The notes: generated from the letters alone by a model not told the origin. Numbered from the stretch's first letter, positions 20,189 to 24,142 are shown. The stretch: 25,092 bases of DNA from Phycisphaerae bacterium (GCA_050245935.1 JBFWWY010000001.1:1-25092), one strand, 5' to 3'. Made by a program: numbers and translations.

Positions 20189-21118
20189 ATGGCCAAGCCT
20201 TTTTATTCGCTCGAAGAAGTTGCCGATCTTCTCGGCAAGTCCAACGACGAAATCACCGCTTTGGTTCGCGCCGGCGATCTGCGCGAGTTTCGGGACTCGG
20301 GGAAGGTGTTTTTCAAGGCCGAAGATGTCGAGAAACTCCGAAAATCCGGCGACTCCGGCGAGATCACGCTCGACTCCGTCGACGCCGACTCCTCCGATTC
20401 GTTGCCAACCCTCGTAGACACCTCCGGCGGTACCAGCATCATCGGCTTGTCAGACATGGATGATGCCGAGTCAGGCGGCAGCGGCGCGCCGGCGGCCAAA
20501 GAGGGCACCTCGCTGCCCAGTGGCATCGGCGTTTTCGATGACGACGAATTGGAACTGGACGACGACCCGATGGCCGCGACGCAGGTGACGGCCGCCGCGG
20601 GCGCTCCGGGAAGTGTTTCGCTGGAAGGCACCGGAAGCGGCTCCGGCCTGTTGGATCTGACACGAGAAGCAGACGACACCTCCCTCGGTGCTGAGTTGCT
20701 CGACGAAATTTATCCGGGTGAAGACGATGCCGCCGCCTCGAAAGCGGGTTCGCGAACCGGCTCCGCCGCCAAGAGCGCAGCGGGGGCTTCGCGCGGCGGC
20801 ACCGCGATCGAAGACGCCGCCGACGAGGAAGACGAAGAAGCGGTCGAGGAGGAAGAGGTTCTGGTGCCCGCCCAGCGGACGTATGCAGTCGCCTACGATC
20901 CCCTCGAAGGTATGTTTTCTTTCATGCTGATCGCGGCGCTGATTATCCTCGGAATCGCCGGTGCTGTGCAGGCGGCGGTAATGCAGGGTTACGTTCCTGA
21001 CTACGGCGTGTTTCTCGCGAACAGATTTTGGATCTTCATTGCCGGCGCCGTGGGAATCCTCGGGTTGCTGACGCTGATCGGCTTCTTGATCGGGCGCAGC
21101 GGTGCAAGGCGCGTCTAG
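20189..21118 (+). CDS. Membrane-tethered excisionase-like HTH protein (HTH, long acidic disordered linker, two C-terminal TMs)
   Basis: FYSLEEVADLLGKS...LVRAGDLREFRD...FKAEDVEKL; D/E/S/G-rich linker; two hydrophobic helices at the C-terminus. Confidence 0.82.
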   Translation: MAKPFYSLEEVADLLGKSNDEITALVRAGDLREFRDSGKVFFKAEDVEKLRKSGDSGEITLDSVDADSSDSLPTLVDTSGGTSIIGLSDMDDAESGGSGAPAAKEGTSLPSGIGVFDDDELELDDDPMAATQVTAAAGAPGSVSLEGTGSGSGLLDLTREADDTSLGAELLDEIYPGEDDAAASKAGSRTGSAAKSAAGASRGGTAIEDAADEEDEEAVEEEEVLVPAQRTYAVAYDPLEGMFSFMLIAALIILGIAGAVQAAVMQGYVPDYGVFLANRFWIFIAGAVGILGLLTLIGFLIGRSGARRV

Positions 21119-21168: not shown

Positions 21169-21197
21169 AAATCCGCGCCGCCGCGCGGATTTTTTTA
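21169..21197. terminator. Intrinsic terminator, probably bidirectional, overlapping the TAA of the convergent gene
   Basis: AAATCCGCGC-CGCC-GCGCGGATTT followed by a T run. Confidence 0.85.
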
Positions 21198-21989
21198 TAG
21201 CGCTGCAATCTGCTCCGCAATTGTGACCGGTGCCAACCGGTCTTGCGGGCGGCGACTGACAAAACTGTACGTCAGCACACCGTTTTTGTTGAACAGAAAT
21301 TGCGCAGGGATGGCAATATCTCCTCCGGTGGGTTTTCCGTTCGGATGCAGCAACCCGAACTGACGAATCACATTCCCTGACGGATCTGCAAGCAGCGGAA
21401 ATTCCAGTTTGTTCTTTTCCGCGACAGCCCGCGATTCTGCGGGGGTATCCGCGGAGATCGCAAGCAACGTCCCGCCTTTCGCGCGAATCTGTTCATGAAT
21501 CGCTTCGAGACCTCGAAGCTCCGAAACGCAGAACGGTCACCAGTGTCCACGATAGAAAACCAGTAGGACCGGCCCTTTGCCCCAATAATCTGCGAGCGTT
21601 ACCGAATTCCCATCCTGATCCGGCAGCGTAAACGTCGGGGCGTCGGCGTCGACCGCCCGAAGCGCATCGATTCGCGCTTGTTGCGGCGCCGGGACGCCAA
21701 AAAACAGGTAAGTAGAGGATACGAAAAGCGCGGTGGTACCCAGCGCGACGATGCTGGCAAGCGTGCCCGGCCAGCGTGGTCGCATGGTCGCGGCCCGCAC
21801 GGCTATCGCACAGCCCGCAATCATCAGCAAAAGATTGGGAGTTCCATATTTTCGAATCGACGGCACATCAAGGAGCGCGACGTAGCTCGCGGCACCGGCA
21901 ACGATGACAAGAATCGACAAAATTGAAGCAAGCAGGGCACGCTTCACACTCGGATCGTTCGGCGTTTCCCTTTGTGGTTTCGCGTCCAT
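21195..21989 (-). CDS. Membrane-anchored peroxiredoxin-like (AhpC/TSA, PRX-like 2) selenoprotein, 264 aa, Sec at codon 151 (TGA at 21539-21537)
   Basis: The frame continues through TGA: APTFTLPDQDGNSVTL...VLLVFYRGHW-U-PFCVSELRGLE...LLAISAD...FPLLADP...PAQFLFNKNG. The TGA sits at the first Cys of the RGxWCPxC motif; SECIS-like hairpin follows; three N-terminal TM segments. Confidence 0.88.
21502..21519 (-). promoter_or_regulatory. Bacterial SECIS-like hairpin GCTTCGA-GGTC-TCGAAGC
   Basis: Perfect 7-bp stem starting 18 nt after the UGA; apical loop starts at +25 with GG. Confidence 0.72.
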
Positions 21990-22180
21990 GGCTTTCGAGT
22001 ATATTGACCCGGTCGTATTTGCACCATCGCAGTCCGGCGCAAGTTGCGGCCAATACGACGCAGATCGGTAAAACGACTTGACGTGATGAATTCGCATCCA
22101 TGAGCGACGCAGTGACGCTTTGTCCCGCGCCGCGCGGAGCGATGCGAATCCGTACATCTCCCGCTTGAGAGGGGCAGTTC

Positions 22181-24142
22181 GTGACGAAAAAACGATGGCA
22201 GCGGGTCGCATTCGGCTGCGGCATTTGGTTTTGCCTCGTATCCGCCAACGCACAGGACATCGTCACCGACGATGCGCAGCCGGACACGCAGCAATCTGTC
22301 ACGACAGTTGTGCCCGAGGTATCAACGGCAGACTCCTCGAGCCCCGAGCTGATCGATGATCTTACCGCGCTACCCGTCTGGCCCTCGTTCAACCGTGTGC
22401 AGTTCGCCTGGATCGGCGTTCTGGGGATTCTCGCGATTACGTTGATGCTCCGGCGCGGCTCGGAGCTGGCGGCGCTCGATGGTCTGCTGCTTGCATTTGC
22501 CGCGACGTGCATGTTGCTCCGAAGCGTCCACACGACCCCGGATTTTCTCGTGGGACATGACCTTTCCTGGTGGACGTATCTCGCGCTGCTGGCGATCGTC
22601 GTATATTTCGCAGTACGCGGCATGTTCTTGCTGGGGAATCAGGTTCCCGATCAGGTCGGGCGCAGCGGCAACGAAGGTGCCGCGTTTGTTTTCCTGGTCG
22701 CAGCGATCCTCTTCGGCACCTGGTACGCGAAGAACGTCCCGCCTGCCCAGGCTTCGGTCGATGGCTTGCTTGGCGGTCGCGAAACCATGGATTTCGGCAC
22801 TCTTCCGTACGGAACGACTTCGAATCATAATCACCGGTCCCCGCTCCTGTATTTGTGGTACGCATCACTCGCAAAAATGGATCTCGTCAACCCGCTTCCC
22901 GATCGGGCGTCGGAATTCGAATTTGAACGAACGAACTTTGAGGTTCGCACGCAGGTTGCACCCTATTTGTGGTACTCGGCGCGCCCCATTCTCTGGTCCA
23001 ATCTTTTCTTCGCGGGCCTGACGCTGATCGGCTTGATGGTGATTGGCAGCCGGCTCCATTCCGCTTCCGTCGGGCTCAGTCTCGCGGCCCTCTTTGCACT
23101 CTTCCCCGGAACGCTGGACGCGATCACGAACTCCGAGCTTTTGCTCGGCACTGCATTGCTGACCTGGGCAATCGCATTCTCCCTGTTGCCATTACTCGGC
23201 GGGTTTTTTGGGGCGCTGTTCTTCGTGGCCGCCGGTTTTGTCTGGCCCTGGGCGTGGCTCGGATTGCCGATCCTCCTCGCGTACTCATGGGTTCGCGGCT
23301 GGATGGTTGTTTGGAGCATCTTCGGATTTCTGGCAGGCGTCGGCCTGTTTGTCTGGGCCTTGCCAATTCTGGTGCCGGCATCGTTGCCGCAACCTCGCGG
23401 CTTTTGGTCCGATTCAGCGGAATTCCCGCGCTATGCCGCAGCATTCGATCCCGAGCAACTCACATTAACCATTACGCCCATGACGGAGCGTCAGCGCACG
23501 GAACTTGCTGCCGAACCGCATACGTTTGCGCCCATGATCGACTGGCTTCTGCGACAGGGTTCCACCACGATCGACAGATTGGCGTCAACGTCGTTTTCTG
23601 ACGGCCGCGTCGTAATTGCCGAGGGAGTTGATCCCCACACGACACATTATGCTGCGATCCTTCCGGTCGACGAGCTTTCTCGTTCCAAACTTCAGGCGCA
23701 GTACCAGTTCGATATGAGCACGGCCGATCCCAAGAAGCAGTTCATGGGTTCCTTGCGAACGCTGATCGAAGACACCTGGCGACCCGGCAAAAGTCCATAT
23801 TCCCTGGAGCAGAGTGCCTGGCGAAGCTGGGGGGCGCTGGAAAAATCCAAAGCGGATCAGATCCGTACGATTCGACGCGTGATCAAGACGATGGCACTCG
23901 TTCTGGCCGCACTGTGTTCGGTCATCCTTCTGTCACGCAAAGCAGTGGCCCCGCCCGCGTTCGTCGGTGCATTACTGGCTGTATTGGCCGTCGGTTTTAT
24001 CGCGTCGCTGAACGGACCGGGGGATCATTGGGCATGGATTTTGCCGGCAATGCTCGCGGCACACGCGGCTACGCGTCCGCGGCTGCCCGCCGTTTCGGTG
24101 GAGGGATATTCCATACCGCCCGCATACCCTGTCCGGCGATGA
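22181..24142 (+). CDS. Polytopic membrane protein, possibly GT-C-fold glycosyltransferase-like
   Basis: Signal-peptide-like start ending ANA-Q; many hydrophobic segments (roughly a dozen by eye); loop GTLPYG...HRSPLLYLWY reminiscent of GT-C/PIG-U-like proteins. The CDS is solid, the function tentative. Confidence 0.6.
   Translation: MTKKRWQRVAFGCGIWFCLVSANAQDIVTDDAQPDTQQSVTTVVPEVSTADSSSPELIDDLTALPVWPSFNRVQFAWIGVLGILAITLMLRRGSELAALDGLLLAFAATCMLLRSVHTTPDFLVGHDLSWWTYLALLAIVVYFAVRGMFLLGNQVPDQVGRSGNEGAAFVFLVAAILFGTWYAKNVPPAQASVDGLLGGRETMDFGTLPYGTTSNHNHRSPLLYLWYASLAKMDLVNPLPDRASEFEFERTNFEVRTQVAPYLWYSARPILWSNLFFAGLTLIGLMVIGSRLHSASVGLSLAALFALFPGTLDAITNSELLLGTALLTWAIAFSLLPLLGGFFGALFFVAAGFVWPWAWLGLPILLAYSWVRGWMVVWSIFGFLAGVGLFVWALPILVPASLPQPRGFWSDSAEFPRYAAAFDPEQLTLTITPMTERQRTELAAEPHTFAPMIDWLLRQGSTTIDRLASTSFSDGRVVIAEGVDPHTTHYAAILPVDELSRSKLQAQYQFDMSTADPKKQFMGSLRTLIEDTWRPGKSPYSLEQSAWRSWGALEKSKADQIRTIRRVIKTMALVLAALCSVILLSRKAVAPPAFVGALLAVLAVGFIASLNGPGDHWAWILPAMLAAHAATRPRLPAVSVEGYSIPPAYPVRR

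Follow-up and report, generated by a model that had tools for sequence, protein, structure and literature searches.

A locus on the minus strand of the window, which is the whole stretch of 25,092 bp analyzed here from a Phycisphaerae bacterium, is very probably one intact gene for a membrane-anchored selenoprotein with a peroxiredoxin fold. The predicted product is most likely a thiol:disulfide oxidoreductase; it has a UxxC motif and belongs to a selenoprotein family that is known from prediction. The genome to which the window belongs (G000) is a metagenome-assembled genome consisting of 565 contigs with a completeness of 70%.

The reading frame and conservation of its UGA codon

The following features define the gene and its downstream boundary:

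21195–21989, minus strand: complete CDS with the start codon ATG at 21989–21987 and the stop codon TAA at 21197–21195, 264 codons plus TAA
21537–21539, minus strand: UGA codon 151, predicted to encode the Sec residue of the U-P-F-C redox motif (homologue comparison and Sec machinery)
21169–21192, no strand assigned: 10-bp GC-rich hairpin AAAUCCGCGC-GGCG-GCGCGGAUUU directly after the stop codon (read from the sequence)

Translation from the ATG at 21989 with TGA read as U gives 264 residues, and the context of codon 151 is VLLVFYRGHW-U-PFC-VSELRGLE. An earlier note on this DNA had claimed that two ORF fragments represent one frame with a single TGA at the redox motif. Indeed, the fragments 21537–22253 and 21195–21467 were found to be the two halves of a single minus-strand frame, and the TGA at 21539–21537 is its sole break. 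The expectation that annotation pipelines would misannotate the gene also proved correct, as the product is cut at W150 in public protein sets and the remainder is listed as a separate AhpC-TSA fragment. TGA terminates 8 of the 19 long frames in the window, which indicates the standard genetic code, and genome-wide reassignment of TGA was ruled out on this basis. Support for the TGA at the level of reads, a check suggested earlier, was sought in a landfill metagenome, where Logan contigs (contigs, not raw reads) from two samples agree on the TGA and show no variants.

The landfill contigs break in the region corresponding to positions 21526–21575 of the window, i.e., at the stretch coding for FYRGHW-U. 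A 48-nt piece from the same metagenome has four differences from the window and runs on into other sequence, thus another organism in the same samples has a homologue.

To evaluate the conservation of the UGA codon, homologues were collected from related genomes and by scanning one genome per species with the peptide pattern VLLVFYRG[SH], and FYRG-x-W-[U/C]-x-x-C forms were counted. TGA at the position of codon 151 with an open frame beyond it was found in 77 distinct homologues and TGC or TGT in eight, a Sec:Cys ratio that is biased by sampling with this pattern. The carriers belong to Planctomycetota (mostly labelled Phycisphaerae), Acidobacteriota, Binatota, Gemmatimonadota, Thermodesulfobacteriota and Myxococcota. 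The protein search revealed full-length relatives (258–286 aa, about 40% identity, 84–94% coverage) with WCPFC at the Sec column, as well as five predicted relatives ending exactly at ...VFYRGHW. A TGA is present at that codon in four of these five (the DNA of P0021 was left out), and the frame downstream of it is open, conserved and annotated separately as an AhpC-TSA fragment. The loci L018–L024 also contain TGA at the same codon, followed by an open and conserved frame. In addition, 20 of the 60 related genomes searched contain full-length homologues, 22 in total, that each have a single in-frame TGA, and a few genomes contain forms lacking the TGA.

Sec predominates in the maximum-likelihood tree, which comprises 82 domains, and Cys occurs at three points of it: in a Bacteroidota pair, which is set apart from all other rows by midpoint rooting, in a paralogue clade of Planctomycetota, and at one tip within the Sec clade. 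The Cys forms of the protein with three transmembrane (TM) helices constitute a separate paralogue clade with the sequence RGSWCPFC. Paralogues of both types, Sec and Cys, co-occur in several genomes, namely G012, G014 and G021 (loci L036, L028, L042 and others).

The genome contains a gene for tRNA-Sec (RF01852, 69.5 bits), which ARAGORN identified as tRNA-SeC(tca) with the anticodon UCA, and genes for SelB (325 bits, C338:1497-3383) and SelA (516 bits summed). No selD gene was found over the cut-off in this 70%-complete genome, the best match having 50 bits against a cut-off of 125 bits. Four relatives, namely the two congeners and two genomes from the same family, do contain selD with 364–380 bits (G001:C103:10621-11550, G002:C3:447-1376, G014:C1:133960-134883 and G036:C2:3222595-3223518). 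Each of these four genes contains one in-frame TGA, so a Sec-containing SelD is predicted for them. As selD is present in the congeners and in the genomes of the same family, its absence here is most likely due to the incompleteness of the assembly. The Sec machinery, which the earlier note had proposed to look for, was therefore recovered in the genome itself as tRNA-Sec(UCA), selA and selB, and with respect to selD over the cut-off in the congeners and the genomes of the same family.

A second candidate selenoprotein of 318 aa is encoded elsewhere in the genome (G000:C540:1398-2354, minus strand; L113:499-1455). Its N-terminus resembles a signal peptide, and its AhpC/TSA domain contains the sequence YRAFW-U-PFC, where the TGA is located at C540:1718..1716 and is followed at a distance of 14 nt by the hairpin GCAACUG-GUU-CAGUUGC. 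The presence of a second TGA-containing AhpC/TSA gene suggests that the Sec trait is in use in the genome. A weak AhpC/TSA-like match (30 bits) was also found at G000:C338:3692-3907, approximately 300 bp from selB on the same short contig.

The hairpin at 21169–21192 is located between two convergent genes, 20189–21118 on the plus strand and 21195–21989 on the minus strand, and is flanked by an A run on one side and by TTTC on the other. A simple scan picked up a part of it at 21177–21165. This hairpin looks like a bidirectional terminator whose T-run is better for the plus-strand gene. On the other side of the locus, a divergent neighbour (22181–24142, plus strand) encodes a protein of 653 aa that seems polytopic on visual inspection and matches no Pfam family (best E-value 0.093); the 5' end of this gene overlaps the upstream extension of the ORF fragment 21537–22253. 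No conserved neighbour genes were found within about 1.5 kb among 56 loci, a heparinase gene being common to four close relatives only. For this reason, no operon-based function, partner or substrate is proposed.

The stem-loop downstream of the UGA codon

One further feature is located within the coding sequence:

21502–21519, minus strand: SECIS-type hairpin in the CDS with a 7-bp stem GCUUCGA/UCGAAGC and the apical loop GGUC

The 7-bp hairpin with a GGUC loop that had been reported 18 nt downstream of the UGA was found as described: GCUUCGA-GGUC-UCGAAGC occupies 21519–21502, its first stem base is the 18th nucleotide after the UGA, and the spacer is 17 nt long. The hairpin encodes part of the peptide E157-L-R-G-L-E-A.

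When the 66 nt following the UGA were folded as a single sequence, the z-score was +0.42, and 127 of 200 shuffled sequences folded as well. The Rfam scan of positions 21380–21620 with E-values up to 10 gave no match. The minimum free energy structure differs from the conserved hairpin, so that comparative evidence alone counts here. When the same peptide was recoded with synonymous codons (n = 5000), only 3% of the recodings produced a hairpin with a G-led loop and seven or more stem pairs at this place.

Comparison of the 20 Sec forms of the close clade showed that 85.7% of the cells of the seven pairs are standard pairs and that three pairs have changed on both sides; none of 500 shuffles reached the observed values. 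A compensatory change of U-A to C-G was found at the column pair 24/35, where the synonymous change of CTT to CTC is paired with a change of GAA to GGA. RNAalifold recovered a 5-bp core from the same 20 sequences. Clades with another peptide contain a different hairpin at the same place, namely GAGCUC-GUC-GAGCUC in the locus L030, CAGCUC-GGG-GAGCUG in Gemmatimonadota and GCUGCAG-GGU-CUGCAGC in Binatota, all at the same distance. In the Cys forms, the ELRGL peptide is encoded by CTG-CGC-GGC-CTG and there is no such hairpin.

A fixed rule was then applied to all the forms (stem start 12–26 nt after the codon, loop of 3–6 nt, G as the first or second base of the loop). Stems with 5 bp or more were found in 67 of 77 Sec forms versus none of eight Cys forms (Fisher's p = 9e-7, uncorrected for relatedness). 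With a stem of at least 4 bp, the numbers were 76 of 77 and 0 of 8, respectively, for sequences that are kin and not independent. The earlier note had suggested searching for relatives with TGA or Cys at this codon and for a conserved hairpin; as found, the TGA is mostly accompanied by the hairpin and Cys by its absence. All these characteristics are those to be expected if a bacterial SECIS is encoded in synonymous codon positions. In the paralogue pairs, ELRGL is encoded with the hairpin in the Sec form and without it in the Cys form, which provides a clean natural example of such an arrangement.

The SECIS of E. coli fdhF, which is the type bacterial SECIS, has a GGUC apical loop closed by A-U. 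Like the window hairpin, it is located directly downstream of the UGA and inside the coding region. The G/U of the loop in the window is about 6 nt further from the UGA than in fdhF. In addition, the stem in the window has no bulged U, unlike that of fdhF.

Proceeding from these data, UGA151 would be decoded as selenocysteine by SelB and tRNA-Sec, and the in-frame stem-loop 17 nt downstream would direct Sec insertion, as in other bacterial Sec genes. The incorporation of selenium into the protein is thus a prediction from the UGA, the hairpin, their conservation and the presence of the machinery. The idea of a selenium-dependent switch, in which termination at the UGA leaves an anchored stub, is speculation and would apply to any bacterial selenoprotein alike.

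It could also be supposed that the gene is a pseudogene with a nonsense mutation, or that a TGC or TGT codon was altered by an assembly or sequencing error, and that either a 150-residue anchor or nothing is made. This would agree with the behavior of gene callers, which stop at the TGA (P0002), and with the failure to find selD over the cut-off in the 70%-complete genome. However, the same TGA occurs in 77 homologues from several phyla with conserved downstream sequence and a co-conserved hairpin, contigs from two samples agree on it, and tRNA-Sec, selA and selB are present in the genome. Such an explanation is extremely improbable: the conserved TGA, the contig support and the standard code exclude a sequencing error, a pseudogene and codon reassignment in practice. 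Comparative analysis therefore identifies UGA151 as a conserved selenocysteine codon and not an error, and the protein is considered below as a predicted selenoprotein.

The redox domain and the membrane anchor

The features of the redox domain are as follows:

21267–21650, minus strand: AhpC/TSA domain (peroxiredoxin-fold, thioredoxin-like), residues 114–241 (PF00578, E-value 2.7e-33)
21528–21530, minus strand: codon of Cys154, the second residue of UxxC (invariant in alignment A3, aligned with the peroxidatic Cys)
21306–21308, minus strand: codon of Pro228 at the position of the peroxiredoxin catalytic Arg (kept in at least 90% of alignment A3)

The match to PF00578 has 115 bits against a cut-off of 26, and no NCBIfam model reached its cut-off, the best one being the SelL-related NF040769 (60.7 bits versus 120). 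The AlphaFold 2 model, which was built from a 55-sequence alignment, has a mean pLDDT of 93.4 and a pTM of 0.88 and contains a thioredoxin-like domain. The best PDB folds found using Foldseek were Bcp4, AhpE, PrxQ and ResA, with TM-scores by target of 0.82–0.88, and the matches to 3hjp and 1xxu had E-values of 1e-12. The peroxiredoxins BCP/PrxQ and AhpE (3hjp, 2cx3 and 1xxu) are similar to the domain with TM-scores by target of 0.87–0.88, an rmsd of 2.0–2.4 Å and 24–30% identity, and their peroxidatic Cys is aligned with Cys154. However, the peroxiredoxin Pro, Thr/Ser and Arg are replaced here and the domain has an N-terminal membrane anchor. In the HMMER alignment to BCP from Aeropyrum pernix (2cx3), F-F-P-A-A-F-S-P-V-C corresponds to F-Y-R-G-H-W-U-P-F-C, and 'akRavF' around the catalytic Arg corresponds to 'aiPaqF' in the query. 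The catalytic Pro, Thr/Ser and Arg are thus replaced by Arg147, Sec151 and Pro228, and the PxxxT/SxxC motif with Arg of catalytic peroxiredoxins is absent from the protein according to this alignment.

Thiol:disulfide oxidoreductases of the thioredoxin-fold suprafamily, including TlpA, ResA and CcmG, are characterized by W-C-x-x-C facing a (cis-)Pro. Pro228 is located where thioredoxin-like oxidoreductases have their cis-Pro, and by analogy we infer a cis conformation for it. Since W-U-x-x-C is opposite a Pro and the peroxiredoxin residues are replaced, the site can be read as a Sec/Cys redox pair and not as a classical peroxidase, which indicates a thioredoxin-like UxxC center. The TlpA/ResA/CcmG proteins (1su9, 2h19) share with the domain a site of the W-C-x-x-C-x-x-E type with the Pro opposite, an N-terminal anchor that places the domain outside the cytoplasm (here a prediction from the positive-inside rule) and a likely dependence on CcdA/DsbD. 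They differ in having one anchor helix and Cys instead of Sec, and the NCBIfam scores are far below the cut-offs (ResA, 48.8 of 170; TlpA, 26.3 of 230; DsbE, 16.5 of 123). No cytochrome c maturation genes were found near the locus.

Most likely, the W-U-P-F-C center acts as a thiol:disulfide oxidoreductase that forms a selenenylsulfide, with Sec151 as the presumed attacking nucleophile and Cys154 as the presumed resolving residue. The domain would probably be re-reduced via a membrane electron shuttle of the CcdA/DsbD type. The genome contains one gene of the DsbD_TM family (G000:C405), whose product may supply the reducing power. Both the substrate ascribed to the domain and the direction in which electrons flow are presumptive.

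A UxxC center with Sec could also reduce peroxides directly, and Sec is an excellent peroxide reductant, as is known from GPx chemistry. It is conceivable, if rather unlikely, that the same Sec gene encodes a peroxidase of the membrane surface and not a protein-disulfide oxidoreductase. H2O2 or lipid hydroperoxides would then oxidize Sec151 to selenenic acid, which Cys154 would resolve in a GPx-like or Sec-Prx-like chemistry. The fold, which is closest to the BCP/PrxQ and AhpE peroxidases, agrees with such a function, as does the position of the domain next to the membrane, the pTM of 0.88 suggesting fixed packing on the helices. However, the peroxide-activating residues Pro, Thr and Arg are all replaced, and the arrangement of W-C/U-x-x-C with Pro is that of the thioredoxin/TlpA type. 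Moreover, Sec is found at the position of Thr and not at that of the peroxidatic Cys, which is the Sec position in Sec-containing peroxiredoxins (TxxU; PMC1088965). The thiol:disulfide oxidoreductase is therefore the reading retained here.

The membrane part of the protein contains the following features:

21870–21938, minus strand: transmembrane helix 1, residues ~18–40 (hydropathy; AlphaFold 2 helix 13–38)
21852–21869, minus strand: loop 1 motif D41-V-P43-S-I-R46, predicted at the outer face (conservation; AlphaFold 2 helix 43–48)
21783–21839, minus strand: transmembrane helix 2, residues ~51–69 (hydropathy; AlphaFold 2 helix 50–69)
21699–21773, minus strand: transmembrane helix 3, residues ~73–97 (hydropathy; AlphaFold 2 helix 73–95)

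The three hydrophobic segments and the corresponding helices of the AlphaFold 2 model agree with the N-terminal three-helix anchor proposed in the earlier note. Each of the 56 non-duplicate loci of the close clade contains these segments, at constant distances from the Sec codon and in Sec and Cys forms alike; the members of this clade belong to Planctomycetota, Acidobacteriota and Binatota. In Sec forms that are more distant, there is mostly one hydrophobic segment (a signal or an anchor) before the domain, and seven of them have none. Pfam contains no meaningful match for residues 1–112 (DUF6056, E-value 0.007, below the cut-off). The whole architecture is shared by a cluster of 96 members from Binatota in the ESM Atlas, with a TM-score of 0.80.

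Charges were counted in 55 sequences. The loop between TM2 and TM3 (residues 64–76) contains a mean of 3.9 Lys+Arg and has a net charge of +3.1, and the net charge of the N-terminus is +1.0. Loop 1 and the linker after TM3 each have a net charge of +0.2 with about one Lys+Arg. According to the positive-inside rule, these counts argue for an N-in, C-out topology, i.e., for a redox domain on the periplasm-like side of the membrane. They favor the earlier suggestion of a periplasmic Sec domain, and the three N-terminal helices would thus carry the peroxiredoxin-fold domain on the outer face.

In an inverted arrangement (N-out, C-in), the redox domain would be located in the cytoplasm and attached to the membrane from the inside. 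The N-terminal segment is indeed weakly positive (net charge +1), and soluble Sec forms without a hydrophobic segment exist in distant clades. Nevertheless, the TM2-TM3 loop contains 3.9 Lys+Arg on average, while loop 1 and the linker that follows TM3 have about one each, and most distant relatives have a single N-terminal segment that would export the domain or anchor it outward. The inverted topology is therefore considered improbable, and we infer that the N-terminus is inside and the domain outside the cytoplasm, as far as can be predicted from charge counts and hydropathy.

In loop 1, P43 is present in 44 and R46 in 48 of the 55 sequences of alignment A3, and R46 is invariant in alignment A1. 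This conservation, together with the high pTM, hints that the three-helix module docks on the domain. One could go further and suppose that the module, with its loop motif D-x-P-x-x-R packed on the Sec domain, makes up a membrane-integral selenoenzyme, a class that would be widespread and unrecognized in Planctomycetota, Acidobacteriota and Binatota; we regard this as a long shot. The substrates of such an enzyme could be lipid hydroperoxides, quinone-type compounds or a disulfide of a membrane protein.

Relation to known selenoprotein families

The Prx-like thiol:disulfide oxidoreductase selenoproteins contain the domain pfam00578 with UxxC or UxxU, and their type member is WP_010940744.1 (PMC1088965, PMC2398784, PMC1794560, PMC9312934, PMC13188914). 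In the GOS survey, 'Prx-like 1' (pfam00578, UxxC) was represented by 225 sequences (PMC2398784). Reviews define selenoprotein families by the domain and the Sec motif (PMC9312934, PMC13188914). The family was predicted about twenty years ago and is still uncharacterized.

The product of the gene is similar to this family in its AhpC/TSA domain, in UxxC in place of the peroxiredoxin TxxC/TxxU, in the existence of Cys homologues and in the in-frame bacterial SECIS. The predicted protein fits the family, membership being assigned by domain and motif. The protein is also related to SelL (NF040769) by its Prx-like fold, by Sec in a CxxC-type motif and by the best NCBIfam match; however, SelL contains UxxU, and with 60.7 versus 120 bits the protein is not a member of that group.

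The difference from the Prx-like family lies in the conserved three-helix membrane module that is fused to the domain here. The term 'transmembrane' is not used for this family in PMC1088965, PMC2398784, PMC1794560, PMC9312934 and PMC13188914. The first described carriers were 'deltaproteobacterial' members of Thermodesulfobacteriota and Myxococcota, and the Sec forms found in these two groups in this work have zero or one hydrophobic segment. Thus, the conserved three-TM anchor is apparently the only undescribed trait, and the selenoprotein itself belongs to a known family.

The gene encodes a hidden membrane-anchored selenoprotein with a SECIS, which is a sound but fairly ordinary finding, and no new mechanism is implied by it. 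With this gene, a well-supported selenoprotein becomes known from Planctomycetota (Phycisphaerae-like MAGs), which are barely covered by selenoproteome surveys; in the 2006 survey, there were too few genomes of Planctomycetes to judge (PMC1794560). At least 56 loci with the three-TM architecture are split in public annotation into an 'unknown membrane protein' and an 'AhpC/TSA fragment'. If the domain is periplasmic, the protein would be a candidate extracytoplasmic selenium-dependent redox enzyme.
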